From IMG/VR virus record IMGVR_UViG_3300037322_000296, positions 3,085 to 67,084 of that record: 64,000 bases of DNA, one strand, 5' to 3'. Positions 27,320 to 64,000 of this stretch are shown here, one piece after another; position 1 is the stretch's first letter, and each line of letters begins with the position of its first letter. The notes under the pieces were generated by a model that worked only from the letters and a program-made list of their open reading frames with translations, was not told the origin of the DNA and did not search any database. Position numbers and translations under genes: made by a program. This DNA is from a virus.

Positions 27320-27331
27320 GATGGCTTTTTT
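27305..27331. terminator. bidirectional terminator between convergent operons
   Basis: aaagccatc-aattaa-gatggcttttt at the junction of + and - genes. Confidence 0.75.
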
Positions 27332-27332
27332 G

Positions 27333-27710
27333 TTATTTCAACTTGTCTATAACCTCTTGTAAATCTGCAATAGAACTGCCCGTCAATTGCTTAATTTCTT
27401 TAATTATCAATAACAAGCTTTTCAATTTTAAAGAATCTCGAAGCGCATACCTTTCTTTTCTAATTAACATTCCGTCTATTTCTTCTTCTGTAACCCATAT
27501 AGCATCTAGCTCGTTTTTATCAATTAAAATTCCTTCCATTGGGTGTTGCTTGTACATATCCTCTAAAGGCACACGTTTTTTAGGTTTGTTAACTGTTTCT
27601 TCAATTAGCAAATTCTCTAAAAATACGTTAAGTAAAAACTTACGTTTCTTTTTTCTACTACTCAATGTTTTGATGTAATCTAATTGCTCTTCGTTGATTT
27701 GTAGTTTCAT
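27333..27710 (-). CDS. hypothetical protein
   Basis: 125-aa ORF ending at the terminator. Confidence 0.65.
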   Translation of the reverse strand: MKLQINEEQLDYIKTLSSRKKKRKFLLNVFLENLLIEETVNKPKKRVPLEDMYKQHPMEGILIDKNELDAIWVTEEEIDGMLIRKERYALRDSLKLKSLLLIIKEIKQLTGSSIADLQEVIDKLK

Positions 27711-27733
27711 AATTATTTGGGTTTTAGTTTTAA

Positions 27734-27825
27734 TATCTATTTTTTTTAGCGCAATTGGTTAAATTTTTAATTGTTTGGTTATTAGTTATTTAGAAACGTA
27801 GGTTCGTATATATACAAGTTGTAGG
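27734..27825 (+). repeat. attI-like anchor, copy 1 (inverted repeat of 45619-45709)
   Basis: 92 bp, 7 substitutions and 1 gap versus reverse complement of 45619-45709; ends TATATATACAAG|TTGTAGG at first cassette. Confidence 0.9.
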
Positions 27826-27836
27826 TAATGCTGCGT

Positions 27837-28964
27837 TTATCTTAAATAAGACAATATGTAAGCTATAACATCGATTGTCCAGCCATTACCTAACATTTTG
27901 TATCGTTGTGTATCTGAAACGTGATTTGTATAGTTTTCAGGTACGGTTTGCAATCTTTCACATTCTATTGGTGTTAATCTTCTTATGTTGGTTTTTGTTT
28001 GTATTAAATCCATATCACTATGATTCCCACCACTATTTCCGCCAGCAGTATAACAACTCGCTTTTTGTTGATTTTTTTTAATATTTCCTTTTTTATCAAC
28101 TTTTATATAAGTATCGGCATTTCCCATTTTGTGAACTCTTGCACTTATGCAACTTGATTTATTTTCAGATTGTAATGTTTCAGTTGTATATTTATTGAAA
28201 ACTTCGTGATTTTTCAAACATTCTAACATTTTGCCACTCAAAAAATATTTATCAGCAACATCAATTTCTAAAATATCTTTCAATAAAATTCCTTTGTCTT
28301 TTGGTTGTGGAATTGTACATTCTAAATCGCCAAAAAATCCAATTTGTTCAACTCCAATATTTGTCCAGTACAAACGATTTCTATTTTGAGCAGAAAGCAA
28401 AGCACTATTAATTTGGATCGGATTAATTCCGATTGCTCTTGTTAATACTTTTTGCCACTTTTCGCCCATTACTACGTTTTCAAGTAAAAAGTAAATGTTT
28501 GGATTAGTTTCTCGCAATTCGTTTAGTATTCGGATATATTCCCAAAACAAATAAGATTGTCCTTCAAATTCAAAGTTTTGACTTTTCAACTCCAGGTAAT
28601 GCTCGATTGATAAAATTTCAAGTTCACATTTTGTTGCCATTCCTTTTCTTTTTCCAGCAAACGAAAAACTTTGACAAGGCGAACCTCCAGCAAGTATGTG
28701 TACAAATCCTAAATCTTTACCTTTTACGTTTCTTACATCGCCAATTTGTATCGTATTTGGAAAATTAGCCATTGTAACTTGTATTGGATATTTTTCTATT
28801 TCAGAAGCGTAATATTTTGTTGGTGTTTTACTAATTTTATTTAACGCTAATTGAAAGCAACTCATTCCATCGAACAAAGAAACTGCTACAAAATCCGCAC
28901 TACCTACAACACGTGTTTTGCAAGATTGTGAATCCTGTGGTTTAATAATATTTTCGTTTCGCAT
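27837..28964 (-). CDS. C5-cytosine DNA methyltransferase (cassette 1)
   Basis: SLFDG, GGSPCQ, LLENV, QNRNRLY, GNGW motifs. Confidence 0.93.
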   Translation of the reverse strand: MRNENIIKPQDSQSCKTRVVGSADFVAVSLFDGMSCFQLALNKISKTPTKYYASEIEKYPIQVTMANFPNTIQIGDVRNVKGKDLGFVHILAGGSPCQSFSFAGKRKGMATKCELEILSIEHYLELKSQNFEFEGQSYLFWEYIRILNELRETNPNIYFLLENVVMGEKWQKVLTRAIGINPIQINSALLSAQNRNRLYWTNIGVEQIGFFGDLECTIPQPKDKGILLKDILEIDVADKYFLSGKMLECLKNHEVFNKYTTETLQSENKSSCISARVHKMGNADTYIKVDKKGNIKKNQQKASCYTAGGNSGGNHSDMDLIQTKTNIRRLTPIECERLQTVPENYTNHVSDTQRYKMLGNGWTIDVIAYILSYLR

Positions 28965-29027
28965 TGTAATTTATTTTAAGTTGAAATTTTACTGTTACGA
29001 AGTTCACAACCTCGCAAAGCACCAAAC
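28911..29027. repeat. attC-like palindromic spacer A (117 bp)
   Basis: Arms gtgttttgcaagattgtgaa / ttcacaacctcgcaaagcac between AAC and GTT. Confidence 0.85.
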
Positions 29028-29040
29028 GTTAGGCGTAATG

Positions 29041-29994
29041 CTAAGACAACCCTCCGAAGATATGAGCAATCGTATCAACATTCCATCCATTTCCTATCAT
29101 TTTTCTAATTTGGTTATCACTTGCCACACCATCAAAGTAAGTTTCAGGCACGGTTTGTAATCTGCAATATTCTTTGATTGAGTAATAGCGGAAAGGTAAA
29201 TTGTTTTTGAATGCGTTAGGGTGTCGTCCTATTGGCATTGTGGTTAAAACATTGTCTTTTGCTACTGTGGTTAAACAGTTGCTTTTATCTCGGTTTGTGG
29301 CTCTCACTTCAAGGCATTGCGTTATTGGTATTTCTTTGTTGTAATCCTCTCGTTTACCTTTATCGTTCAATCTTCTACCCAAAATAGTAGCCTTATTCAA
29401 TCTTCGTCCTCTTATTGGACTTGGACCAATCATCCCAGTATCTTCTAAAATATCAATCAATTTTATTTGTTTGTCGGTTGGTTGTTCAATTGTAAAGTTT
29501 GCCCAATACAATCGTTCTCTATTTTGGGCTGATACCAAAGCACTATTTATCCTTACAGGTTCTACCCCTAAGTGTTCGGTTATCACTTGTTCAAATTCCT
29601 TTTTCATAACCACATTTTCCAAAAGCCAATATTTCGGTTTACATTCCTTAATCAGTCTTACAAATTCAAAAAATAATTTGCTTCGTGGGTCATCAAAATT
29701 CAATTGCTTCCCGCTAAAACTAAATCCTTGGCAAGGGCTTCCACCTATCAATAAATCTACTTTCGGTAAATCCGTGCCTTTAATATCGGTAACACTTCCA
29801 AGTTGTATCGTATTAGGGTAATTGTGTTGTGTTACTTTTATGGCGTGTTTATCAATCTCCGAAGCATAATATTTGCCATAGGAAATGGATACTCTGTTGA
29901 GTGCAATTTGTCCGCAACTCATACCATCGAATAACGAAAGCACTGCACCTAACACGGGTTTGGCAAAATTGCCGTTTTGTTCTTCTATCAACAT
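29041..29994 (-). CDS. C5-cytosine DNA methyltransferase (cassette 2)
   Basis: SLFDG, GGSPCQ, LLENV, QNRERLY, GNGW motifs. Confidence 0.93.
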   Translation of the reverse strand: MLIEEQNGNFAKPVLGAVLSLFDGMSCGQIALNRVSISYGKYYASEIDKHAIKVTQHNYPNTIQLGSVTDIKGTDLPKVDLLIGGSPCQGFSFSGKQLNFDDPRSKLFFEFVRLIKECKPKYWLLENVVMKKEFEQVITEHLGVEPVRINSALVSAQNRERLYWANFTIEQPTDKQIKLIDILEDTGMIGPSPIRGRRLNKATILGRRLNDKGKREDYNKEIPITQCLEVRATNRDKSNCLTTVAKDNVLTTMPIGRHPNAFKNNLPFRYYSIKEYCRLQTVPETYFDGVASDNQIRKMIGNGWNVDTIAHIFGGLS

Positions 29995-30065
29995 TCGTTC
30001 TTAATTATTAAGTTTTGTATTTCAATTGAGCTTTCGGTTCGGCAACTTCGCCAAGCCCGAAACCG
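29954..30065. repeat. attC-like palindromic spacer B (112 bp)
   Basis: Arms cgggtttggcaaaattgccg / cggcaacttcgccaagcccg. Confidence 0.85.
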
Positions 30066-30077
30066 TTATGCCTCATT

Positions 30078-31046
30078 TTAGGAGGACTTACAGAAACAAT
30101 CAGTTTCAAATTCAAATAACTCTTGTTGTTGTTTTGAAAGTTCGTGTAAATCTTCCGCTTTTGTGAATGGTCTTTGTGCCATTTCTACAAGTTCCTCAAT
30201 ACTTTTATTTGTTCTTAAATCAAATCTCGGTACATCTTCAAAAGCATAAGTTTCTTCCATTCTTTGCCACCATTCCGCAATACTTGGATTATCTTTTATA
30301 ATTGTTAATCGCTTTTTTAATGACTTTTTAAAGCATAAATCACAATTTCCCTCGTAATCTTTTAAACCTAAATCAAAACTTTGTTTTTCCCAAAACTCAC
30401 GAACCATTCTTTGATTCATTGGCAATTCATCGCACAAAGGGTAAATTATATTTTCTTCTTTAGCGTGTATTGATTTTCGGTGCGCCTCGTCTGCTCTAAT
30501 GCCTATTGCACGAATTATATTCATATTTTTAAAATTATCTCTTAAATATGCGTCAATAGGCCTTTGTTTTAACTCTCTTGTGCAATTTGAAGCCATGTTG
30601 TTTGGTAATGGGTATTTTTTAAGCATTGCTTCAAATGGTTCTCCGTTTCTTGATGCAGTTTCAAAATTTACTATTGTGTATGTCGTACCTGTTTTAAAAA
30701 ACCTTACGTCTCTATCAAATTCTCTTAAACCAATAGCGTAATTTTCTCCAAGCATTTCTTTAAAGTCTTCCAGTCCATTTATATCGCATTTCATTCTTCC
30801 GAATCCTGGATAAACAAAATCGTAATTAACGCTTGCTTCAAGCCATATTAAATTTAATCCAAACTCTTTATCACATTTATCGGCAAAAATTAAACTCTTT
30901 TCTAATTCTCTACCTGTATTTAAAAACACATAAATAACGTTTGGATATTTATGTGGATTTTCTTTTAAATGCTTTGCTAAAATTGCAGATGTTCTACCAC
31001 TTGAAAACATACATACATACAATTTATTATTCAATGATTTTTCCAT
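30078..31046 (-). CDS. PAPS-reductase-family (PP-loop) protein (cassette 3)
   Basis: FSSGRTS, NTGRE, CTRELK, IGIRADE, GNCDLCF. Confidence 0.85.
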   Translation of the reverse strand: MEKSLNNKLYVCMFSSGRTSAILAKHLKENPHKYPNVIYVFLNTGRELEKSLIFADKCDKEFGLNLIWLEASVNYDFVYPGFGRMKCDINGLEDFKEMLGENYAIGLREFDRDVRFFKTGTTYTIVNFETASRNGEPFEAMLKKYPLPNNMASNCTRELKQRPIDAYLRDNFKNMNIIRAIGIRADEAHRKSIHAKEENIIYPLCDELPMNQRMVREFWEKQSFDLGLKDYEGNCDLCFKKSLKKRLTIIKDNPSIAEWWQRMEETYAFEDVPRFDLRTNKSIEELVEMAQRPFTKAEDLHELSKQQQELFEFETDCFCKSS

Positions 31047-31197
31047 AAGTATCTATTTCAAATTTTAATTCAAATTCACATTTTATTCCAAAATTTTGAG
31101 TGGAACAAGGATATTTAGATTTACAAACATTACAATAAAAACGAGGCATAACATCGGTTTGCACGCATTGCTCGTTTTCGTTTATATCGTTTTTCAT
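31027..31197 (-). CDS. 56-aa Cys-rich peptide starting inside spacer C (not in ORF track)
   Basis: MKNDINENEQCVQTDVMPRFYCNVCKSKYPCSTQNFGIKCEFELKFEIDTYGKIIE*, overlaps PAPS-reductase start by 20 nt. Confidence 0.55.
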   Translation of the reverse strand: MKNDINENEQCVQTDVMPRFYCNVCKSKYPCSTQNFGIKCEFELKFEIDTYGKIIE

Positions 31198-31262
31198 TTA
31201 CTTTTAGTTTTTAATAATTAAAATTCGTTTTCATAAGTCGCAACGACGTGCAAGCCGCAGCC
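31153..31262. repeat. attC-like palindromic spacer C (110 bp)
   Basis: Arms cggtttgcacgcattgc / gcaacgacgtgcaagccg (one extra base). Confidence 0.85.
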
Positions 31263-31275
31263 GTTAGCAAACAAC

Positions 31276-31725
31276 TTAGTTTGATTCTGCCAATAGTTCA
31301 GGATTTTCAAAAATGTTTCCAATTACATTACAAACTAGATTAATGCAGTTAATTCTAAAAGTCATTTCTTGTTGATTGTATTTGGGTAGTTTATTATTAT
31401 AAACAAAATTACATACGAACATTCCTTCTTTAAACCTCATTATTCCTTGAGCATTAAATCCATTATGTAAAATATCTCCTTCGTAAATATCAATGCCGTT
31501 TTTATCTTTTAATCCTGTAAACTGCATTATGTTTATTTCTCTTGAAAATTGGTCATTTAAAGGTGCATATTCTGAAAAAGCAAAGTCACTACCATAAAGC
31601 ATTTTTGGTTCAGAACAACCAGTAAGATGTTCGTCAAAAACCCTAAAAAATCTAAATTTGAAAAGTCGATTTGCTAACAACGGTTTGAACGCATTGCTTA
31701 AATCTGTGGAATTACTTTTTTTCAT
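31276..31725 (-). CDS. YopX family protein (cassette 4)
   Basis: MQFTGLKDKNGIDIYEGDIL and VIGNIFENPELL. Confidence 0.9.
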   Translation of the reverse strand: MKKSNSTDLSNAFKPLLANRLFKFRFFRVFDEHLTGCSEPKMLYGSDFAFSEYAPLNDQFSREINIMQFTGLKDKNGIDIYEGDILHNGFNAQGIMRFKEGMFVCNFVYNNKLPKYNQQEMTFRINCINLVCNVIGNIFENPELLAESN

Positions 31726-31790
31726 GTTCGTTTGTTTTTAATTATTAAATTTTGTTTTCATAAGCAAGCAACGACGTGCAAGCCGCAGCC
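31679..31790. repeat. attC-like palindromic spacer D (112 bp)
   Basis: Arms cggtttgaacgcattgctt / aagcaacgacgtgcaagccg; last 23 bp identical to spacer C. Confidence 0.85.
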
Positions 31791-31803
31791 GTTACAAGAC
31801 AGT

Positions 31804-32286
31804 TTAGGACAACTGAATAAAACGACCTTTTATGTTGCAGTTCTTTAATATTTCAGCATTGTTTTTTCCGTATGCTATTAATACACTTGGTGCGCCAGCC
31901 GAAGATCCTTTTACTCCTGTAACATGGTAAAAACTTAATCGACCTTTTATAAACAATATCGCATCAGCTTTTTCCCAAACGCACTTAAAAAACATTTTAG
32001 TTTCAGTTCTTGCAAAAGTCAAAGCAATACAATTTCCATGCATTGCAGCTTTTTCTAAAAAATGTTCAGCATATTTTCCATAAGGTGGATTACACCAAAC
32101 CCTACCAAACCAATTTTGCATTAATCCGTTATCATTTATATTGAAATGATTTGTCGCAGTATCCCATGGTCTATTTATCGGAGAACAAGGATCTAAGTCA
32201 AAATCCCCCAATGATTTTATTAGTTCTGGAGGCGTTAACCATTCGTCTTTTCCTGTTGCTGTATTTCCTTCAAAAGTTACATTCAT
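31804..32286 (-). CDS. phage N6-adenine DNA methyltransferase (cassette 5)
   Basis: DEWLTP, LDPCS, WCNPPY, ARTET; probable ATG at 32286 (MNVTFEG). Confidence 0.88.
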   Translation of the reverse strand: MNVTFEGNTATGKDEWLTPPELIKSLGDFDLDPCSPINRPWDTATNHFNINDNGLMQNWFGRVWCNPPYGKYAEHFLEKAAMHGNCIALTFARTETKMFFKCVWEKADAILFIKGRLSFYHVTGVKGSSAGAPSVLIAYGKNNAEILKNCNIKGRFIQLS

Positions 32287-32317
32287 AATTTGTGTGAATA
32301 AAAAACCGTCTTGTAAC

Positions 32318-32436
32318 ACTCGTTTTGTGCTATTACGGCAGTTGTGGTTAATTCATATTTGTTTTGCACGTAGGCGTTTATTTTTAATTGAAAATCTAGT
32401 TTTCGCTAATCCGTAACAGACACAAAGCGAGGGAAC
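32318..32436. repeat. attC-like palindromic spacer E (119 bp)
   Basis: Arms ctcgttttgtgctattacgg / ccgtaacagacacaaagcgag (one extra base). Confidence 0.85.
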
Positions 32437-32437
32437 G

Positions 32438-32875
32438 TTAGTGGTCAGTTAAAGAACTAATCTGCAATTCTTCACTATTCCGAAAAAAGAATATATTTTG
32501 CAAGTGGTGTAGCCCTTTGATTTCAACTCTTGAAACGTATTCAATCCATAGTCCATTGATGAAATTAATTTGCATTCCAAATAAATTAAAACTTGGAAAA
32601 TCTTTTAAATCTAACTTTACAGCATTTAATTTTAAAAGCAATTCTTCTGAAATTGGTATCGATTCAAATTCAGAGTGTTCGGTATAATCAAACGTAATTT
32701 CATCAATGTATAAGTATTCAGAATCTACACCAGTAACTGTACTATATTTTCTTTCTCCGTAAATTAATTTTACAATATTTCCAATACGTATTTCGGTTGG
32801 TAAAATAGCCGAACCGCTGACAGCATTTTGGCAAGATTGCTGATTTTGTGGTTCATTAATGTTTTCGTTTAACAC
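32438..32875 (-). CDS. hypothetical phage protein (cassette 6), paralog of 35466-35852
   Basis: EIRIGNIVK...IPISEELLLKL...LHHLQNIFF; TAA stop lies inside the cassette end TAAC. Confidence 0.8.
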   Translation of the reverse strand: MLNENINEPQNQQSCQNAVSGSAILPTEIRIGNIVKLIYGERKYSTVTGVDSEYLYIDEITFDYTEHSEFESIPISEELLLKLNAVKLDLKDFPSFNLFGMQINFINGLWIEYVSRVEIKGLHHLQNIFFFRNSEELQISSLTDH

Positions 32876-32894
32876 AATAAGTAATTTTAAATTT

Positions 32895-33617
32895 TTATTT
32901 ATTAACTTTTATTTTATCGGCAAAGTATATTTGACCTTTGCCTGTAATTTTGGTAGTTTTAGTTGTAAATGTTTCTAAGCCACTTCCAATAGTCCTAGTT
33001 ACCACTTCAAATAGTCCAGAAGCAACATGGTTTTGATATGGTTCATTATCTTTGTTTAAGTATTTTTTATCTCTAAACCATTCAAAAACTCTATTTTGAC
33101 CTATTTCAAAACCGCTATCACATAAATCCTTAGCAAATTGACGAACTAATATTGAGTTTGAACTGCCAATGACACTTTCTGCAAAAATAACCTTAGATTT
33201 ATCCTGTTCTATCTTATCAGTCGCTTCTAGTAATAAATTAGATACTCTAATGTTCTCAACCAACAATACTCTTTCTGAATCAATTACTTCCAGATGTGTT
33301 CTTGGTCTTAGGACTGCTTTTTCACAAGCGATAAAATATCTTCTAACTTCTTTTCCTTTTGGAACTTTAGAAAGCATCGCTAATTCCTTAGCGCAATCAA
33401 TAGTTAATGCATAGTCAATTCTATTAGTGCCTCCAATTCCGTTATCGTGGTTAACGTATGCCTTAATCGCCTGATAATCAATGTTCTCATCAAATTGAAC
33501 TTTATTATCATCAAACCATTGTGTAAAGTGATTTTTAATATCAAGAGCTTCGTAAAGATTTCTTGCGGAAACAACTTGTTCTCCGTTTCTTTCTGTAATT
33601 TTTATTAATTGTTCCAT
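32895..33617 (-). CDS. phage antirepressor (AntA + KilAC domains)
   Basis: VVSARNLYEAL...AKELAM...VRRYFI and DKSKVIFAESV...TKITGKGQIYF. Confidence 0.9.
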   Translation of the reverse strand: MEQLIKITERNGEQVVSARNLYEALDIKNHFTQWFDDNKVQFDENIDYQAIKAYVNHDNGIGGTNRIDYALTIDCAKELAMLSKVPKGKEVRRYFIACEKAVLRPRTHLEVIDSERVLLVENIRVSNLLLEATDKIEQDKSKVIFAESVIGSSNSILVRQFAKDLCDSGFEIGQNRVFEWFRDKKYLNKDNEPYQNHVASGLFEVVTRTIGSGLETFTTKTTKITGKGQIYFADKIKVNK

Positions 33618-33618
33618 T

Positions 33619-33816
33619 TTAAAAAGGTAATTTTTTAATTATTTTTTTAATTTCAGATAGCTCCCAATTATGAAGCTTTAATCTTCTCTCTAAGGTAGGT
33701 CTTGTGAATCCAATAATACCACAAATTTGGCCCTTTGTTAACGTTCCAACCCAATTTAATACACCGTAAGAAACCAACTTTTTGTTAACTATTAATTTTT
33801 TCAAACCTTCATCCAT
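33619..33816 (-). CDS. small HTH DNA-binding protein (Cro-like)
   Basis: TKGQICGIIGFTRPTLERRL. Confidence 0.6.
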   Translation of the reverse strand: MDEGLKKLIVNKKLVSYGVLNWVGTLTKGQICGIIGFTRPTLERRLKLHNWELSEIKKIIKKLPF

Positions 33817-33831
33817 ATCTAAATATTTTTA

Positions 33832-33839
33832 CAAATATA
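33832..33839 (-). promoter_or_regulatory. -7 promoter element (TATATTTG) for the HTH-antirepressor-cassette operon
   Basis: Reverse complement of caaatata 16 bp before ATG at 33816. Confidence 0.6.
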
Positions 33840-34002
33840 TTAAAAATATATTAAAAATATATTAATTACAAAGTTTTTGATTAAAAAAATAATTTCTATG
33901 CTATTTTTATGGTAAACTCACATCTTGGATTTTCTTTATCAATAAACTTTCTTGCATGTATTAAAGAGCAATTATTATCGTTTTTAATAACCTTTAATTT
34001 GG

Positions 34003-35046
34003 TTATTTTTTATATAACTTGTAATAATGCTTTCTACATAATTCTTTTGAGTGATTTTTATTTTCACAACCATCAACAGAACACTTTATTACTGAACTTA
34101 AATATTCATCTGAATCTAAAATACCCCAGTTAGGGATAAAAGAAGATGCTTTCTTAATCTCATTATATCTTTTTTTATCTATTAAAGACATTTTTTCGTT
34201 TGGATAATATTTTGCAAATCTTTTTAATTTAGTTTTTGATTTATCATCCATCCAACCTTTAATTTCTATCCAAAATTGAGATCCATCAATATTTGTTATT
34301 AATAAATCAGGTTTATAACTTCTAACACCTCTTTTTATTAATTCAAACCAAAATGTTTTAGGTTCATATTCCCATTCCTTTATTTCATTTTTAGTTTTTA
34401 AAAACTCATAATAAGCTATGATGTTAGCTTCCCAAGAAGACCTAACAAAAACAGTTTTACCACCAATAGTTATTGTTCCTTGTTTTGCTCTAGAATAATT
34501 ACTAGATAACACTCCATTTGCTCTATTTTTACTCATTATGTTAGATTGGTTTTGTTTATGTTCTTCTGAATTAAAAAAGTGATTTTTATTTTCCCATGCT
34601 TTTTTAGTTGATTCTGAAATCTTTTTTTTAGTTTCTTGACTATGTTTACCTCCTAAAAATCCTTTTGGATGCCCTTTTTCTTTTAACCTTTGTTTTGTTT
34701 TTTTTGATAAATTATCTTTAGCTTTATCTGGTATTTTTGAATTTCTATTTGTTAACCCTAATTTTTTAGCTTTTCTACTAATGAAAGGGATTGTTCTATT
34801 CATAATTAAAGCTAATTCTTTTAAGTTCCAATCATCTTTGTATTTTTCATAATTTTCTATCAAAAATTTTTCATCTTCTTCTGTGAAATAATTTATTTTT
34901 TTACATAAATTATGTTTGCTTAAAACAAAATGTATATATTGACCTGTAAGGTTAAAGAAATGACCAACCTTCCATACGTTTTTTAATTCAATATATTTTT
35001 TATTTATTTCAGACAAATGTATTCCTTTATAAAAAATATCTTCCAT
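34003..35046 (-). CDS. putative freestanding homing endonuclease (NUMOD3-like motifs + PD-(D/E)XK nuclease)
   Basis: GGKHSQETKKKISES; RSSWEAN, YEP, YKPDLL, IEIKG; C-terminal C-x4-C...C-x2-H; probable start MEDIF after own -7 motif at 35057-35064. Confidence 0.7.
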   Translation of the reverse strand: MEDIFYKGIHLSEINKKYIELKNVWKVGHFFNLTGQYIHFVLSKHNLCKKINYFTEEDEKFLIENYEKYKDDWNLKELALIMNRTIPFISRKAKKLGLTNRNSKIPDKAKDNLSKKTKQRLKEKGHPKGFLGGKHSQETKKKISESTKKAWENKNHFFNSEEHKQNQSNIMSKNRANGVLSSNYSRAKQGTITIGGKTVFVRSSWEANIIAYYEFLKTKNEIKEWEYEPKTFWFELIKRGVRSYKPDLLITNIDGSQFWIEIKGWMDDKSKTKLKRFAKYYPNEKMSLIDKKRYNEIKKASSFIPNWGILDSDEYLSSVIKCSVDGCENKNHSKELCRKHYYKLYKK

Positions 35047-43414: not shown

Positions 43415-43446
43415 ATTAAATAATTTAGATTAGTAACTCTTGAATG

Positions 43447-43651
43447 CAAAGATAAGAATGTATTTTAAATAACCGCACAATTATTGTATTATTTTTATAT
43501 AAAAAATATCGGAGTAAAGTTTTTCCTACAAATGAAAAGTTACCTAAAACGCTAGGAGTATAGTCTTTGCACTACAATCGTAATATGATTGTGTTTTTAA
43601 TAAAAAATTGTATTAAAATTGTGCGGTAATCAAAAATAATTTATATATTTG
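43447..43651. promoter_or_regulatory. divergent promoter pair with shared AATTGTGCGGT box
   Basis: Minus -7 TATCTTTG (43447-43454) and plus -7 TATATTTG (43644-43651); 11-bp inverted repeat at 43472-43482 and 43617-43627 over each -33 region. Confidence 0.7.
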
Positions 43652-43700
43652 CGTATTGAATAAAACCGCGGTTATAGGCAGTATGGGAATTTAAAAATAA

Positions 43701-44429
43701 ATGAAAATGAAATATATGGGAAGTAAGGCAAGGTTTGCAAAAGAACTATTGCCAATAATATTAAAAGATAGAAAAGAAAATCAATACTATGTAGAGCCTT
43801 TTGTTGGTGGTGCAAATATGATTGACAAAGTAAATGGGTTGAGGATTGCTGGAGATAGTAATAAATATCTAATTGCATTATGGAATGGTTTAAAAACTAA
43901 TAGCGATTTACTTATGGAAATATCAAAAGACACTTTTTCAAAAGCAAGAACTGAATACAATGACAAAACTAATATTGAATTTACAGATTTTGAATTAGGT
44001 TGGATTGGTTTTATGGGAGGGTTTAATGGTAGATTTTATGGTGGGGGATATTCAGGCAAGCATAGAAATAGAGATTATGTAAATGAGCAAATCCGAAATA
44101 CATTAAAGCAATTAGAAGCCATAAAAGATATTGATTTTAATAGTTGTAATTACGACCAATTAGAAATACCAAACGGAAGTATTATTTATTGCGATATTCC
44201 TTATCAAGGTACAAAAGAATATGATACAAAGGATAGATTTAATCATACAGAATTTTGGAGCTGGTGTAGGGAAAAATCAAAAAATAATACTGTCTATGTT
44301 TCAGAATATAATGCACCAGATGATTTTGAGTGTGTTTGGGAAAAGAAAGTAAACGTATCAATTAGACCAACAAAAACCTTACAACAAACAGAACGATTAT
44401 TTAGGCTAAAATCGACTATTGAAAACTAA
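43701..44429 (+). CDS. DNA adenine methyltransferase, D12/Dam class (cassette 7)
   Basis: KYMGSK, YVEPFVGG, IYCDIPY, VSEY. Confidence 0.9.
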   Translation: MKMKYMGSKARFAKELLPIILKDRKENQYYVEPFVGGANMIDKVNGLRIAGDSNKYLIALWNGLKTNSDLLMEISKDTFSKARTEYNDKTNIEFTDFELGWIGFMGGFNGRFYGGGYSGKHRNRDYVNEQIRNTLKQLEAIKDIDFNSCNYDQLEIPNGSIIYCDIPYQGTKEYDTKDRFNHTEFWSWCREKSKNNTVYVSEYNAPDDFECVWEKKVNVSIRPTKTLQQTERLFRLKSTIEN

Positions 44430-44448
44430 TAATAATATTGCCTATAAC

Positions 44449-44567
44449 GTTCCCTCGCTTGCTCGTCGTTGCGGATTTCGTAACGATAAATTTTCAACTT
44501 AAAAATAAATATGATGCGAAACGAAAATATGATTAAACCAATAAACTCACAATCTTGCAAAACACGT
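44449..44567. repeat. attC-like spacer F (119 bp), apparently chimeric
   Basis: Most of it resembles reverse complement of spacer A (…tcacaatcttgcaaaacacgt identical); first 12 nt match reverse complement of spacer E end. Confidence 0.8.
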
Positions 44568-44634
44568 GTTGTAGGCATACCACTTAACACTTTTAAAAAT
44601 AACTTAAATTAAAAATAACTTAAATTAAATAAAA

Positions 44635-45600
44635 ATGAAAAAATATCCAAGTATCGAGCAGTTTAGAAATGTTATTAGAACTGTAAAAACAAATCACGAT
44701 TATCAAGGTAAAGATGAAAATGGAGAAAGTATTTATTCTCACAATTCTAATTACCCAACTTTAAAATTCAAAGGAACTGTAAAGCTTCACGGAACAAATG
44801 CTGGAGTTGTAAAATACGCTGATGGAAAAATAGAATTTCAATCAAGAGAAAGAGTTTTAACTTTAGATTCAGATAATTCTGGATTTATGAATAAAATGCA
44901 CTTATTAGATTTTGAAAAATATTTTTCTCAATTAACATTTACAGAAAGTTGTGCGATTTATGGAGAATGGTGTGGTGGAAACGTTCAAAAAGGAGTTGCT
45001 ATAAACGGACTTGAAAAAATGTTTGTGATTTTTGGAGTAAAAACAGATGATGAATGGATTGAAATTCCTGTAACATTTATAGATGAAGAAAATAAAATAT
45101 TCAATATTAATCAATTCAAAACGTATGAAGTTGAAATAGATTTTAATAATCCAGAATTAATACAAAATAAACTTATTGAATTGACTATTGAAGTTGAAAA
45201 TGAATGTCCTGTTGGTAAATATTTTGGGAATATTGGTATTGGAGAAGGAATTGTATTTACTTCTTTAAAGTACCCTGATTTAATATTCAAATCAAAAGGA
45301 GAAAAACATTCTGTATCAAAAGTAAAAGTGTTAAATGAAATTGATGTTGTAGCAATGGAAAATATTAATGAATTTATTGAACTATCTGTAACAGAAAATA
45401 GATTGAAACAAGGATTACAAGTTTTAAAAGAAAATGGAATATTGATAGAGACTAAATCAATTGGAGAGTTTTTAAGATGGATTGTAACTGATGTTTTAAA
45501 AGAAGAAAAAGACACTTTAGAAACAAGTAGATTAGATGAGAAAAAAGTGAAAGGAGCAATTGTAAACAAAGCAAGAGTTTGGTTTTTAAACAATTTTTAG
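44635..45600 (+). CDS. RNA ligase, Rnl2-like (cassette 8)
   Basis: Motif I KLHGTN, QSRER, YGEW, GEGIV, FKSK. Confidence 0.88.
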   Translation: MKKYPSIEQFRNVIRTVKTNHDYQGKDENGESIYSHNSNYPTLKFKGTVKLHGTNAGVVKYADGKIEFQSRERVLTLDSDNSGFMNKMHLLDFEKYFSQLTFTESCAIYGEWCGGNVQKGVAINGLEKMFVIFGVKTDDEWIEIPVTFIDEENKIFNINQFKTYEVEIDFNNPELIQNKLIELTIEVENECPVGKYFGNIGIGEGIVFTSLKYPDLIFKSKGEKHSVSKVKVLNEIDVVAMENINEFIELSVTENRLKQGLQVLKENGILIETKSIGEFLRWIVTDVLKEEKDTLETSRLDEKKVKGAIVNKARVWFLNNF

Positions 45601-45618
45601 CGATAATATGGGCGGTTG

Positions 45619-45709
45619 CCTACAACTTGTATATATAAGAACCTACATTTGTAAAATACTTATAACCAAACAATTAAAAATTGAACCAATTGCGCTAAAA
45701 AAATAGATA
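45619..45709 (-). repeat. attI-like anchor, copy 2 (inverted repeat of 27734-27825)
   Basis: See copy 1; ends at the base immediately before the recombinase ATG (45710). Confidence 0.9.
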
Positions 45710-46960
45710 ATGAATATAATTTATAATTTAAAAATAGGAAAAAAGAGCAATCAATTATTTTTGCGGTTGTATAAATCTAAGCTTGATATTAGTTGTAGTA
45801 TTGGGATTGTTTTAGATACTAATGATTGGAATCAAGAATTACAATTAGCAAATTCTTCAATTATTAATCAGAAGTTGTCAGAACTTAAGTCTAACGTTTT
45901 AAGAAGCTATAACGAAATGTTTGTGCAAGGTTTTATAATTGATAAAAACGCTCTTAAAAATATAATATCTGATTGTTTTAATAGGCCAACAAAAGAAATT
46001 TCACAAGCAAATAATGACATGTATGTTTATTATTCAGATTTTGCTCAAAATTGGCTTGATAAAGATTCGGATCAATGGAAAACTTCTGCTAGAAAAACAA
46101 TGGTTAAGTCCTTGAAAAAACAATACCAGGACTTTGTTAATTTGTTTTTAGAATTTGAAAAAACATTGGAATCGAAACTTATTTTAAAGGATATGACTAT
46201 TGATGATTTTTACGGATTTGCTAATTATATGGAAGAAGAAAGCTACAATAATAGCACGATAAAGAGAACGCTATCTAGGATGAAGTTTTTTTGTCAAAGA
46301 GCAAACGAGCAAGGGATAAAGATTTCCTCTGCTTATAATCAAAGAGTTTTTGTAGAAAATGATAGTGATGAAATTGAAGGTGTATATTTGAATGAGGTGG
46401 AAGTTTTAAAAGTTTATAATACTGATTTTAGTTTTGATCCAAAATTGCAAACGGCAAAAGAAAATTTGTTGATAGGTATTTTTAGCGGACTTCGTTGTAG
46501 TGATTACCTAACAAATTTAGATTTAAAAAATATCAAAGATGATTTTATTACAATAACCACTCAAAAAACTAAAACGAAAGTCGTGATTCCGGTACATGAC
46601 ATAATAAAAGAAATTATTAAAAGTAATTTTGGTCAATTACCTCCGAAAATGAATGCTTTTGAATTTGGAAAGTCTATAAAGATAATTGGGCAAATTTGCG
46701 GATTTGATGAATTAGTATTTGGAAAAAAATGGGATGCTGATAAAAAAAGAAAAATAGTTGGTTATTTCAAACGTTACGAACTATTTACTACACACATTGC
46801 GAGAAGGAGTATGGCTAGTAATTTGTATGGTAAAATTCCTAATGATAGTATTTTATCGATATTGGGATGGCAGAATGAATCCATGTTATTTCATTATGTT
46901 AAAACCTCAAAGAAAGAACACGCACAAAAATTAAACGATTATTGGCAAACTAAAAACTAA
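45710..46960 (+). CDS. tyrosine recombinase / phage integrase
   Basis: SGLRCSD (R), TQKT (K), HIARRS (HxxR), LGW, FHY (Y); N-terminal arm-binding and SAM-like regions. Confidence 0.92.
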   Translation: MNIIYNLKIGKKSNQLFLRLYKSKLDISCSIGIVLDTNDWNQELQLANSSIINQKLSELKSNVLRSYNEMFVQGFIIDKNALKNIISDCFNRPTKEISQANNDMYVYYSDFAQNWLDKDSDQWKTSARKTMVKSLKKQYQDFVNLFLEFEKTLESKLILKDMTIDDFYGFANYMEEESYNNSTIKRTLSRMKFFCQRANEQGIKISSAYNQRVFVENDSDEIEGVYLNEVEVLKVYNTDFSFDPKLQTAKENLLIGIFSGLRCSDYLTNLDLKNIKDDFITITTQKTKTKVVIPVHDIIKEIIKSNFGQLPPKMNAFEFGKSIKIIGQICGFDELVFGKKWDADKKRKIVGYFKRYELFTTHIARRSMASNLYGKIPNDSILSILGWQNESMLFHYVKTSKKEHAQKLNDYWQTKN

Positions 46961-46965
46961 AAAAT

Positions 46966-47337
46966 ATGACAAAACCAAAAACAGGAATAGCCGTTGATGG
47001 AGCTTGCTCGGGAAATCCTGGTCCTGCTGAATACAGAATAGTAGATATAGCGACAAATAAAATTTTGTTTGAAAGAAAAATAGGTATCGGAACTAATAAT
47101 CATGCTGAGTTTATTGGTTTATGTGATGCTATTTCTAAATTCCCTAATGAAACAATATATACTGACAGTCTAACAGCTATATCTTGGGTATTTAAAAGAA
47201 AAGTAAATAGTAAGCATTATCACAAAGAAATTGATAAATGGATTGATATGCTTAAAAAAATTTCTAAATTTCCAAATATTGTAAAATGGGAAACTAAAAA
47301 ATTTGGAGAAATTCCTGCTGACTTTGGCAGAAAATAA
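46966..47337 (+). CDS. ribonuclease HI (catalytic domain only)
   Basis: VDGACSGNPG, TNNHAEF, YTDS, GEIPADFGRK. Confidence 0.9.
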   Translation: MTKPKTGIAVDGACSGNPGPAEYRIVDIATNKILFERKIGIGTNNHAEFIGLCDAISKFPNETIYTDSLTAISWVFKRKVNSKHYHKEIDKWIDMLKKISKFPNIVKWETKKFGEIPADFGRK

Positions 47338-47338
47338 C

Positions 47339-47444
47339 TATATTTGCCTTAAATAACAAGTAAGGCAGTTATGAACTTTTAAAAGTCCTTTTACAAGGCA
47401 CATATAAAGTCTAATAGAACGCCTTACTTCTATTGGACTTTTTT
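47339..47444 (+). promoter_or_regulatory. -7 promoter followed by terminator hairpin with alternative pairings
   Basis: TATATTTG 47339-47346; stem 47406-47441 plus T-run; gccttactt (47421-47429) complementary to aagtaaggc (47358-47366). Confidence 0.55.
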
Positions 47445-47858
47445 GTTTTTTACAAGTATTGAATAAATGGTTTTCAACTGCATACCATTAAACGATTTTG
47501 CAACAACGCAAACTAAAAAAAGCAGAATAATACAATATGAGTTTAAAATAAAAAGAAAATGTTGAAAGGAACGTGCCAAAGAAACACCTGCTCTGTATTA
47601 GCTTTACAACAGGCAACTCCTGCATCGAAAGATGGTTTCGGTAACGAGTTAAAAAGAATGAAATTTAGTAGGATTCATTCACCTAAAATTAGGTAAGGGG
47701 TAACAATTGTCCGATTAAGCATAGTGTAATAGTCCTAAACTCAAAATCAATTTTATTTTAAACTTAGTTGTTGTAGATAGGAGGGGTAAAAGCGAAGCTA
47801 TATTTTATAGTTAAAAAATCAAATAAAAAAACCACTTATTTCTAAATGGTTTTACTTT

Positions 47859-48218
47859 TTATCTATGTTGTTCTTGTCTTGTTTTTAAAACTTTATCGTT
47901 TGATATTTTTGTATGGTATTTTAATTCTTTTCCTTTTTCAATTAACATTTCGTGCGTGAAATACAAAGGTTGTCCTACAACATCAACTCCGATTTGAAAA
48001 GAAACTTCTTGTGTTCTAAATCTATTGGTTAAGTTTTTTTCTTGAACTATTTTGTTTTCTAACTTTTTTACCAGAATAAGCAAGTCTGCTTGTTTTTCTA
48101 TCCACCGGCTTTTTAGAAATTGTTTACCTGCTGCTGAAGTTTTTGGTCTGCCTGGATTTTGATGTTCGATAACCTTTACGTATCGGTTAATCAATTCGTC
48201 AATGCTACATTTTTTCAT
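47859..48218 (-). CDS. hypothetical protein
   Basis: 119 aa, ATGA overlap with upstream gene. Confidence 0.65.
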   Translation of the reverse strand: MKKCSIDELINRYVKVIEHQNPGRPKTSAAGKQFLKSRWIEKQADLLILVKKLENKIVQEKNLTNRFRTQEVSFQIGVDVVGQPLYFTHEMLIEKGKELKYHTKISNDKVLKTRQEQHR

Positions 48219-61589: not shown

Positions 61590-64000
61590 TATTACTATAC
61601 AAGAACAGATACAAGACATTACTATCGAGGTTATCGAAAACATCGAAGTAGTTACTATAACCGTCAACGAAGGAGTTTTTGCTGCCGATGGACTTTCTGC
61701 CTATGAAGTTGCGTTACAAAACGGATTTTTAGGTACTCAAGTAGAATGGTTGGCTAGTTTACAACCTATTGTTATTAACCAAGATAATATTCAAGTAACA
61801 AAACAAGTATCTATAAATGCCGATGTAAATACAGTTTCAAAAGCACAAATATTAACTGCCATAAATAGTATTCCAAGTTATACTATTTCAGAAACGCAAG
61901 TGTTTAATTTAATAGAGTTAAAGTTTTACGAAATTGTTAATGGTGCAAATATCTTTAAATCAACTTTAAACTATGCAGTTAGTGGATTAGGAAAAGGTAA
62001 TTATGGAATTGGAAACATTCAAATTATTTATTCAAATTTGACATTAATTGGTTCTTTTTTACCAACAGCAGACGATTATCTTAATGATCCGACAACCGAA
62101 ACTATTGTAATTGAAGATTTAGGAGGATTAGATGTTTCACAATTCGTAAATGTAAAAAACCCATTTTATGTAGTTAAATCAATTTCAGAAGGACGAACAT
62201 TATTTGCTACACCAAGCGGAATATATTTATTTAAACTTGCAGGCGGTAATTACGGATTTAATGGTATTTCAACCACAACTTTGGCAGATTATGAGTTGCT
62301 AAGTGAAACCGCTACAATACCTACAATAGATGCCGAAGTTATAGAAAACAGTACTAATGCAGTAAGTGGCGGTGGTGTTTATGATTTTGTGCAACCAACT
62401 TTAGAAAAAGAAGTTCCAATAATAACAGATTCTTTTACCATTTTAGATAGTGTCGATTCTAAAAGAAAAAAATTAACATTTGATAATTTAATAAATTACG
62501 TTAAGGTGTTTATAGATAATTCTTTAGCATTATTTAAAACAACTAATTTTTTAGATGCTACAAGTTCTATACAAACACAAATAAATTCCGCATTAAACAG
62601 AACTTTTGCTCAATTAGTAGGAAGCGCAGCATTTATTACTAATTCTGCAAGAATTTTTTGGATTAATGGATTTTTTAATTCAAGTATAAATCAAGAAAGT
62701 TTAGATTTTACATTTTATAACCAACCTAATAATCAATATAAATTTCTTAGAATTAATTTTGGAGGAATATCAACTAGAAAAGTTTATAACGGCGATAGTT
62801 ATAGCTTTGAATTTCCAGAAGGAAATGGAGTAGGTGCTTTTCAACCAGAAATAACGACAGGATTACCTATTACTATACAAAAATTTAAAACGTACATAAA
62901 TATAGTTAATACAGTTTATAATCCTGCGTTTGTATTAACAGATAACTTTGAATTTACAATAAGAGTTATTTCAGGTACGGCTACGTTTAGTAGCACATCA
63001 TTTGTTTTTTATCCTGGAGATAATGTAATCTTAAGATATTTTTCTGGAGTTTGGACTGTATTTAATTTAAACAACCCAACCACAAACTTTTTACCTAAAA
63101 AGGGAGCGAGTGGCTTTGTAGATAGCGCGATTAGTGAGGATGCAACAAATGTTTTAAGTTCAAAAGTCTTAAGATTAGCGGCGGGTTTAACACCAAGTAA
63201 CGCACAAGACTTAACGCCTAAATCCTACGTAGACGCAATACCAAACCCAACCACAAACTTTTTACCGAAAAAGGGAGCGAGTGGCTTTGTAGATAGTTCG
63301 ATTAGTGAGAATGGAACTAATGTTGGGATAGGCACAACAACGCCAACTGAAAAATTAGATGTATTAGGAAATGGAAAGTTTAGTGGTAAAGTAACAGCAA
63401 GTAACGGAACTCTTTTAGCAGGCACAGGAACAACAAACCAACTAGCAAAATTCACGGCAAGTGGTACGGTTGGTGATAGTTTAGTATCGGATAACGGTGG
63501 TACTGTTCTAATAAATGGTAGGGTTGAAATTAACAGTGGGTTAATTCAATCGGATAGGTTGGTTGTTTTTGGTGAAAGTGGGCGGTTAATTTTAGGAGGT
63601 GCAAATGGACGGACTATTTCGGCTTTAAACACGGCTGGTCTTGCTTTATCAGCTATTGACTTTTCTGCGGTTAACGTTTTTTTTAACTCAGATTTATTAA
63701 TGGGCACAAGCAAACAAATTAGGAGCAACGGGAGAGTCATCATCAGTCCTAATATATCTGATAAAGTCATTCAATTAAATGGAGATGGCTTATTTAGTGG
63801 AACAGTATCTTTTGGACAATTTACAACAGCAACAGAACCAGCCTATGTTAAAGGAGCAACATTTTTTAACACGACATTAAACAAGTCAAAGATTGGCGGA
63901 GAAACAGCATACGAAACGCAAATAACAGGCACAGGAACAACAAACCAACTAGCTAAATTTACAGCTAGTGGAGCGGTGGGTAATAGTGTAATTACTGAAT
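61576..64000 (+). CDS. tail fibre protein (3' end outside window; not in ORF track)
   Basis: ATG 61576, frame open to window end; GLSAYEVALQNGFLGTQVEWLASL, NVGIGTTTPTEKLDV, internal repeats. Confidence 0.85.
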   Translation, partial: MSADNITIQEQIQDITIEVIENIEVVTITVNEGVFAADGLSAYEVALQNGFLGTQVEWLASLQPIVINQDNIQVTKQVSINADVNTVSKAQILTAINSIPSYTISETQVFNLIELKFYEIVNGANIFKSTLNYAVSGLGKGNYGIGNIQIIYSNLTLIGSFLPTADDYLNDPTTETIVIEDLGGLDVSQFVNVKNPFYVVKSISEGRTLFATPSGIYLFKLAGGNYGFNGISTTTLADYELLSETATIPTIDAEVIENSTNAVSGGGVYDFVQPTLEKEVPIITDSFTILDSVDSKRKKLTFDNLINYVKVFIDNSLALFKTTNFLDATSSIQTQINSALNRTFAQLVGSAAFITNSARIFWINGFFNSSINQESLDFTFYNQPNNQYKFLRINFGGISTRKVYNGDSYSFEFPEGNGVGAFQPEITTGLPITIQKFKTYINIVNTVYNPAFVLTDNFEFTIRVISGTATFSSTSFVFYPGDNVILRYFSGVWTVFNLNNPTTNFLPKKGASGFVDSAISEDATNVLSSKVLRLAAGLTPSNAQDLTPKSYVDAIPNPTTNFLPKKGASGFVDSSISENGTNVGIGTTTPTEKLDVLGNGKFSGKVTASNGTLLAGTGTTNQLAKFTASGTVGDSLVSDNGGTVLINGRVEINSGLIQSDRLVVFGESGRLILGGANGRTISALNTAGLALSAIDFSAVNVFFNSDLLMGTSKQIRSNGRVIISPNISDKVIQLNGDGLFSGTVSFGQFTTATEPAYVKGATFFNTTLNKSKIGGETAYETQITGTGTTNQLAKFTASGAVGNSVITE
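63073..63971 (+). repeat. two pairs of direct repeats inside tail fibre
   Basis: 63073-63138 vs 63244-63309 (PTTNFLPKKGASGFVDS.ISE); 63420-63464 vs 63927-63971 (GTGTTNQLAKFTASG). Confidence 0.85.

Follow-up and report, generated by a model that had tools for sequence, protein, structure and literature searches.

Does a tyrosine recombinase whose gene begins where a gene-cassette array ends move the cassettes of that array, or is it a neighbour for other reasons? The question is raised by a 64,000-nucleotide (nt) stretch of viral DNA (positions 3,085 to 67,084 of IMG/VR record IMGVR_UViG_3300037322_000296), called the window below, which belongs to a 67-kb uncultivated phage genome and supplies all coordinates. 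At 43671-46960 two cassettes, a non-coding anchor and a recombinase of 416 amino acids (aa) follow one another. Integrons are defined by the integrase IntI, and they were long thought to be nearly absent from Bacteroidota and rare in phages. The original prediction, made from the sequence alone, left two options, namely that the adjacent non-IntI recombinase drives cassette exchange, or that the phage borrows an integron integrase from its host and the adjacency is incidental. The explanation that we consider probable is an integron-like array without a recombinase of its own, served by one acting in trans, with the integrase adjacent through synteny. The parts of the locus, designated array 2, are as follows (ORF, open reading frame).

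43415..43670, no strand: divergent promoter region and distal start of array 2, ending in AAAAC-CGCG-GTT, a half-site that resembles the right arm of a junction element
43671..44448, plus strand: cassette 1, opening with GTTATAGGC (43671-43679) and closing with its exact complement GCCTATAAC (44440-44448), with a D12-class N6-adenine DNA methylase ORF inside (43701-44429)
44439..44576, plus strand: junction element J2.1, a 138-nt attC-like imperfect hairpin (covariance model R1, 121 bits, E 1e-24)
44568..45626, plus strand: cassette 2, in which GTTGTAGGC (44568-44576) and GCCTACAAC (45618-45626) flank an RNA ligase ORF (44635-45600; phrog_548)
45627..45709, plus strand: anchor copy 2, the terminal spacer of array 2 in attI position, 83 nt
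45710..46960, plus strand: tyrosine recombinase, 416 aa, of the Bacteroidota phage-integrase type, with SAM-like and catalytic domains; not IntI
46966..47337, plus strand: RNase H-like gene directly 3' of the integrase (PF00075)

Pfam recognises MethyltransfD12, RNA_ligase, Phage_integrase and Phage_int_SAM_5 in the genes of array 2, in agreement with the two cassettes of common grammar that had been predicted (a Dam-class methyltransferase and an RNA ligase), the coordinates of which proved exact. The recombinase is indeed transcribed away from the array, from an ATG at 45710 on the plus strand. On reading the minus strand of 27250-34100, a second and larger array was found.

27818..32923, minus strand: array 1, six cassettes with the same grammar as array 2, on the opposite strand
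Cargo of array 1: a 145-aa unknown; a PF05869 Dam; YopX; a PAPS-reductase-like gene with a small CxxC ORF; a Dcm of 317 aa; a Dcm of 375 aa
32837-32923: right-half element at the distal start of array 1
32309-32446, 31670-31800, 31144-31272, 29945-30074 and 28902-29037: the five junction elements of array 1, 129-138 nt
27741..27828, minus strand: anchor copy 1, which closes array 1 proximally, in an orientation opposite to that of copy 2
27333..27710, minus strand: 125-aa ORF beyond anchor copy 1, not a recombinase

That the cassette grammar is integron-like and real is well supported. Each cassette starts with GTT-N7 and ends with N7'-AAC, the N7 being peculiar to that cassette, and elements of about 135 nt lie between cassettes. 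Beyond GTT and AAC, the start and end of the same cassette are complementary at 6.6 of 7 positions as against 2.5 for non-own pairs (7 of 7 window cassettes), a value equalled by 1 of 5040 permutations of the cassettes. The rule extends to eight other viral contigs, where at least 6 of the 7 positions match in 22 of 29 cassettes and none of 2000 shuffles reaches the observed mean, and to the array of a Flavobacterium chromosome (8 of 8 by eye). The bare 9-mer GTTRTAGGC shows no enrichment in the window (18 matches with up to one mismatch allowed, 13.0 expected) while the grammar lies far beyond chance, so that the significance rests in the grammar. Complementarity within the same cassette is a hallmark of integron cassettes, in which a single recombination site is divided between both ends of the linear cassette; its halves are complementary, since they are partners in the folded site. 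The PAPS-reductase-like cassette (31046-31200, minus strand) has a small ORF with CxxC pairs preceding the main gene and is therefore a two-gene cassette.

The junction elements likewise resemble attC sites. In all 15 aligned elements the ends TAACG and TGTT are invariant, which, together with the complementarity of R'' and R', gives the AAC and GTT ends of attC. From its R box the element passes through a 5:1 internal loop into a 9-bp helix that has a constant C.A mismatch; a bulged middle then leads to a 7-bp helix, which is capped by an A/T-rich loop of about 75 nt. As fold energies are shuffle-like and RNAalifold finds one 8-pair helix only, this structure was set by hand and then tested by pair counts: helix 2 is 89% paired with five double-sided pair changes and helix 3 is 93% paired with four, compared with 32-44% in slid controls. 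Such covariation, the C.A mismatch and a single bulged base in the left arm are features of the imperfect attC hairpin, although, unlike in most attC families, the loop sequence of these elements is conserved too. We considered whether a junction's right arm might pair, across the gene, with the left arm of the following junction, and rejected this, since the match to the own partner is far better (J1.4 and J1.5, by eye).

The left-arm pattern occurs in eight other IMG/VR contigs, in all of which model R1 finds arrays of 2-9 elements. Among bacterial genomes, pattern and model together pick out one Flavobacterium chromosome, with about 35 elements in a single run (2,380,917-2,412,139), and one Bacteroidota metagenome-assembled genome; the other three of the five bacterial pattern matches (Lachnospiraceae, Terracidiphilus and Acidoferrales) have no model match and are regarded as chance. 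The carrier of arrays 1 and 2 is most likely a phage of Flavobacteriia.

If the arrays are integron-like, is the adjacent enzyme their recombinase? To judge from its sequence, the 416-aa enzyme is a phage-type integrase of Bacteroidota and not IntI. The integron-integrase model TIGR02249 of NCBIfam gives no match at E up to 0.1, and NCBIfam otherwise yields weak XerC/XerD matches alone (27 and 20 bits). Pfam finds PF00589 at 29 bits together with the SAM-like PF13102, and the enzyme also matches the phrog_1 integrase. This comparison of hidden Markov models bears out the earlier impression of a phage integrase lacking the IntI-specific insertion. Integrases of Bacteroidota phages and of integrative and conjugative elements (IntCTnDOT-like) are characterised, in the available text of Smyshlyaev et al. 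2021, by a SAM-like core-binding domain, the catalytic set R-K-H-R-(H/W)-Y and an N-terminal arm-binding region. The 416-aa enzyme has this composition, its arm binding being a prediction. Its R262, K286, H362, R365, W387 and Y396 vary little or not at all among 18 relatives, and the arm-binding family PF17293 is recognised in one distant relative (P0042). The 42 database relatives are all of 266-443 aa, several of them on contigs of 50-77 kb; orthologues are 78% identical in the relative L036 and 41% in L014. The integrase is the single PF00589 gene in the whole genome of the window phage.

That this integrase recombines the cassettes, with the anchor as its attI-like site, is very unlikely. 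In its favour the anchor stops at the ATG of the integrase, the order array-then-integrase recurs in L036, L037/L038 and L041 at integrase identities of 41-78%, and the catalytic residues are conserved across the 18 relatives. The first of the two options originally proposed nevertheless fails on several counts. Two complete array-bearing phage genomes (G001 and G002) are without any PF00589 gene. Viral searches with the single integrase sequence gave no relatives and with two sequences gave G003 only, hence the viral integrase loci were retrieved by a database search and an 18-sequence alignment; an array lies within 10 kb of the integrase relative in 5 of these 16 loci, none having been found nearby in the remaining 11, one of which (L040) offers hardly any sequence upstream. 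In G003 and L048 the orthologue sits at the opposite end of the array, or 5.6 kb off on the other strand. The window integrase has no match at 1e-10 in the two element-bearing bacterial genomes. Anchor copy 1 has no recombinase adjoining it, only the 125-aa ORF, which matches no family in any of three libraries. Finally, in L036 another gene parts the array from the integrase.

This other gene encodes a Xer-like recombinase. L036 (also G311) is a complete genome of 72.8 kb with 76% nucleotide identity to the window in the integrase region. The promoter region is also kept (L036:5252-5469, 72%; window counterpart 43446-43652), and the slot from there to the integrase is occupied by five elements, unrelated cassettes and a 267-aa Xer-like gene, whose ATG lies 51 nt past the terminal AAC and whose end is followed by the integrase after 15 nt. 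At the same place L041, with an integrase of 41% identity, has a 34-codon remnant of the Xer-like gene, and tblastn of the window genome found no trace of it. In G003 the 41% integrase orthologue lies on the distal side of the array and a 278-aa Xer/IntI-like recombinase has its ATG, again, 51 nt past the terminal AAC; the Bacteroidota metagenome-assembled genome is arranged in the same way as G003, and the Flavobacterium chromosome has a homologous recombinase gene at the same array end in the opposite orientation. The order of array, Xer-like recombinase and integrase thus appears, from three genomes, to be the older one, and the adjacency in the window would have come about, at an undated point, by loss of the middle gene.

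The association is not confined to these genomes. Xer-like relatives are encoded in 359 viral stretches, of which the best 80 were analysed; among those 80, an array lies upstream in 42 of the 55 loci having at least 1 kb of upstream sequence, and all 134 element matches, in 44 loci, lie upstream of the Xer-like gene and on its strand. The associated recombinases share 35-53% identity with one another and retain the full catalytic set. They match TIGR02249 below its cut-off and in two stretches, skipping positions 181-240, which is the site of the IntI insertion. Their best structure matches are archaeal XerA, with IntI4 matched over residues 10-180 only. For the array-side recombinase of the Flavobacterium chromosome, the integron integrase is the best NCBIfam match, also below cut-off; in the segment taken from this chromosome (L025; 2,404,000-2,418,000) the recombinase ORF measures 584 aa, with about 300 extra N-terminal residues. 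Many viral contigs (e.g. L056-L058, L070, L078 and L091) have their first base 56-57 or 173-179 nt before the Xer-like gene, at or just past the array terminus, which probably reflects assembly breaks at repeated elements.

What, then, is the anchor? It measures 83 nt, from the base after the terminal AAC (45627) to 45709, just before the recombinase ATG. The end position given by the original prediction was correct, while its length of 91 bp was not, for it counts the R'' arm. The description as non-palindromic holds, no stable fold being found, as does the attI-like geometry, the anchor being placed, like attI, at the array end nearest the recombinase. Copy 1 (27741-27828) and copy 2 (45616-45703) are 91% alike over 88 nt, inverted and 17.8 kb apart. 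In about 45 loci the spacer before the Xer-like recombinase is conserved, reading TACTATATGTA...TGTAAACACCAATAAA... after AAC over 51-53 nt, and the window anchor reads TTGTATATATAAGAACC...TTTGTAAAATAC...AACCAAACAATTAAA after its AAC. An alignment with copy 1 that starts at the terminal AAC covers the entire L121/L122 spacer (55 nt, 74.5%, E 0.001 in 1 Mb by blastn-short), and blastn-short with the anchor found no match in the eight related contigs. We conclude with moderate confidence, on the basis of this resemblance, that the first 55 nt or so of the anchor correspond to the attI-position spacer of the Xer-like platform, leaving the last 29 nt or so aside.

The anchor might instead be an attP, or an arm of the attP, of the adjacent integrase, with the array simply located beside a lysogeny module, and attP often does adjoin the integrase gene; the direct repeats CCTACAACTTGTA / CCTACATTTGTAA within the anchor could then be arm sites. 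We find this scarcely probable, given that another, inverted copy at a distance of 17.8 kb would expose the genome to inversion, that the anchor has its start precisely at the border of a cassette and is similar to the Xer-like platform's spacer, that the sequence on both its sides is replaced in metagenome contigs (see below) and that no tRNA lies near. A more usual place for attP would be 47338-47858, although an attB search with 47338-47860 in 301 Flavobacteriaceae genomes returned short A/T-rich, low-complexity matches alone. Non-coding over its 520 nt and situated beyond the RNase H gene, this stretch is a candidate for attP or a small-RNA region; the tRNA scan found none nearby, this stretch included, and Rfam has no match to it.

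Whether the cassettes move in nature could be examined by comparing array 2 with four public runs (X1, X2, X5 and X6) as Logan contigs at 90% likeness; X1 and X2 share over half of the sampled words of the stretch, and X5 and X6 about 28%. The population is found to vary cassette by cassette at the AAC/GTT boundaries, the breakpoints lying at AAC or within the arms. One contig joins 43674 to 44445, so that the Dam cassette is gone (depth 27, short side 96 letters), and another joins 44445 to 45624, removing the element body and the ligase cassette (depth 28, short side 27 letters). In X1 the ligase cassette has a depth of 3-7 where its neighbours have 28-36. A contig match begins exactly at 45624, the A of the terminal AAC, in three runs, the X5 and X6 contigs carrying other sequence up to that point, and some contigs diverge from the window at 45714, leading to another gene past the anchor. 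Joints expected of an inversion between the two anchors were absent from the contigs, array 2 alone having been compared.

The position of the crossover is suggested by the elements themselves. Among 70 element pairs with bodies at least 80% identical, the upstream N7 is identical in none and the downstream N6 in 12; as the former is never shared and the latter sometimes is, the body tends to travel with the downstream gene, which points to a crossover at AAC. A crossover there fits both the fixed position of the recombinase at the AAC end and the reversed ORFs of the host array.

The elements also carry what may be signals for expression. Their loop contains a start codon and a conserved leader (MMRNENMI.P...C..T.V.G) that runs through GTT into the cassette ORF (e.g. 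28964-28900 and 44511-44612), and in 30 of 33 phage cassettes an open frame spans nearly the whole distance between GTT and AAC. That the leader serves as a capsid-targeting peptide was considered and set aside for want of evidence. In J2.1 the leader ORF has 33 codons (44511-44612), runs through the GTT site and then stops, and the RNA ligase starts downstream at its own ATG. J2.1 looks like a chimera of two element types. Its right part (44468-44575) is 84% identical to 28903-29010 on the other strand in a repeat search. These observations, as well as near-identical bodies between different flanks and a G.T pair conserved on the sense strand in 15 of 15 elements, would suit expression modules (promoter, start codon, leader and RNA hairpin) shuffled by homologous recombination alone, without a site-specific recombinase. 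A precedent of this kind is offered by the promoter-stem-loop (PeSL) repeats of T4-type phages, short conserved intergenic repeats with expression signals that flank swappable accessory genes and are thought to act by homologous recombination; we know of no cassette-specific inverted repeats and no linked tyrosine recombinase in that system. Homologous recombination alone, nevertheless, leaves unexplained the cassette-specific inverted repeats exactly at GTT and AAC, the breakpoints exactly at AAC, and the fact that arrays are strictly polar and linked to a single recombinase family (134 of 134). A search of 27000-48000 against Rfam at E up to 0.1 gave no match. On balance we consider this explanation unlikely.

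We therefore return to the recombinase-less array served in trans. Under this explanation 43671-45709 would be the smaller of two integron-like arrays, in which hairpins of about 135 nt act as attC sites. The array family of Bacteroidota would normally be headed by a Xer/IntI-like recombinase of about 270 aa without the IntI insertion, starting 51-53 nt past the terminal AAC, and in the window phage, which lacks that gene, the terminal spacer alone would be left, once per array. Because the Xer-like gene is gone and the anchors remain, the arrays would resemble clusters of attC sites lacking integron integrases (CALINs). The usual definition of a CALIN is at least two attC sites and no IntI near them. 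Array 1 has five full elements and array 2 one full element and two half-sites, with no IntI, and the definition would apply only if these elements are taken to be attC sites. They are not complete integrons, IntI being absent; the anchor occupies the attI position, yet the ORFs read towards it. Recombination at the AAC/GTT sites of elements that are folded or paired would release cassettes and insert them, the recombinase coming from the chromosome of the host, from a resident prophage or from a co-infecting phage, and homologous recombination between conserved elements would add shuffling. The 416-aa enzyme would be the lysogeny-type integrase of the phage itself, abutting the array because the ancestral Xer-like gene between them is gone. 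The second option of the original prediction thus survives in part: the borrowing of a recombinase is retained, but the lender would be an insertion-less Xer-type enzyme and not a classical IntI, and the adjacency would stem from conserved synteny followed by gene loss and not from pure chance. The cargo (four DNA methylases, an RNA ligase, a PAPS-reductase-like gene and YopX) would fit a swappable set for anti-restriction and host takeover.

Certain observations weigh against this explanation. The hairpin energies are mostly no better than those of shuffles (z from -2.8 to +1.6, with 1 of 12 folds below -2). The evidence of recombination is indirect, for the joints come from assembled metagenome contigs and could be standing variants of any mechanism. 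Most of the element pairs are uncoupled on both sides and J2.1 is chimeric, which indicates that homologous recombination also contributes. The homology of anchor and spacer is modest: a profile of 43 spacers in nhmmer lists copy 1 as the best window match, beginning at the AAC, but weakly (E 0.26), with copy 2 unlisted. Synteny of array and integrase in L036, L037, L038 and L041 leaves some room for a role of the integrase. Lastly, relative to the element, cassette ORFs are in sense orientation in 30 of 33 cases in viral contigs and antisense in 8 of 8 in the Flavobacterium chromosome array, and with such opposite orientation the phage and host cassette pools may not interchange freely.

A broader and distinctly more tentative proposal is that phages of Flavobacteriia and related Bacteroidota run a gene-capture platform of their own, comprising an insertion-less Xer-type recombinase, an attI-like site of about 52 nt and attC-like hairpins of about 135 nt. 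Phage cassettes would be reversed with respect to those of the host so that each site gives the next gene its start codon and leader, and anti-restriction genes would be shuffled between phages; the window phage would have lost the recombinase while its two inverted arrays are still reshuffled in trans.

Compared with classical and sedentary integrons, the system shares the R''/R' complementarity, the imperfect hairpin with mismatches and a bulge, uniform polarity, a recombinase at one fixed array end and cassette turnover between close relatives. It differs in that the associated recombinases are without the IntI-specific insertion, that the ORFs of phage cassettes are directed at the recombinase end and have their start within the recombination site, and that the last cassette ends in a bare AAC and spacer instead of a full attC. 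Few integrons are reported in Bacteroidetes in the accessible part of the IntegronFinder 2.0 paper (PMC9024848).

The nearest described systems are the phage CALINs and the rAID-1 arrays. The accessible text of Qi et al. 2023 (PMC9892861) reports 17 CALINs in 10,705 phage genomes, one of them, in Polaribacter phage P12002L, bearing methylases, and IntI1 activity on five sites of three phages, none of which is of the present family. Cassette rows, hairpin sites of the form ...AAC / GTT..., absence of IntI and orphan DNA methylases, as described there, are common to both, and the locus of P12002L, a phage of Flavobacteriia, shows the same own-cassette inverted repeats. The present elements differ in their length of about 135 nt and in the conserved loop with start codon and leader, and model R1 finds no match in P12002L (E 0.39). 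The description in that text is without a Xer-like recombinase platform, unlike the relatives found here. The published P12002L_attC2 maps just past the terminal AAC of the small array of P12002L (L011 6540-6620), and not to the two clear hairpin junctions of 65-70 nt between the methylase cassettes.

The rAID-1 arrays of Bacteroidales combine, according to the portion available of Ross et al. 2019 (10.1101/471110), a XerD-family recombinase with co-directional accessory genes, and their repeats are called reminiscent of integrons; they are recognised there by a XerD-like recombinase at the 5' end, with an identity of 44% or more to the Bacteroides fragilis reference, and by two or more co-directional low-GC genes after it. 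The order of recombinase and then genes is that of the Flavobacterium chromosome array, whereas in phages the recombinase is downstream of the genes. Moreover, the rAID-1 arrays lie on chromosomes, and their genes confer immunity to type VI toxins. Our literature search, which did not extend to bioRxiv supplements, found no account of a phage platform with a Xer-like recombinase, Qi et al. 2023 and Ross et al. 2019 being the only works that bear on it.

The array adds one more member, well preserved and without a recombinase, to a version of the integron idea, hardly described so far, that is found in Bacteroidota phages. The window array and its relatives display the same cassette logic with a simpler, Xer-type recombinase. 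The platform is common in viral contigs, with 359 recombinase relatives and arrays in most of those examined. Since the cargo consists mainly of orphan DNA methylases, the system probably lets phages swap anti-restriction genes fast. Adjacency to a recombinase is, in addition, not evidence of partnership; comparison with the relative whose integrase is 78% identical reveals the missing gene. The difference in orientation between phage and host and the start codon within the recombination site lead to concrete questions on recombination.

Some further observations concern the surroundings of the arrays. The divergent region that separates the early genes from array 2 contains a 45-nt inverted repeat (43461-43505 / 43594-43638, 76% complementary), which holds AACCGCACAATT / AATTGTGCGGTAA and resembles an operator pair. 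The structural arm of the genome includes very large ORFs of 2965 aa (18422-27319) and 1452 aa (11321-15679). At 63073-63324 and 63404-63990, inside the last, open-ended ORF, direct repeats of about 80 nt are 93% and 81% identical, suggesting a repeat-built fibre or adhesin.

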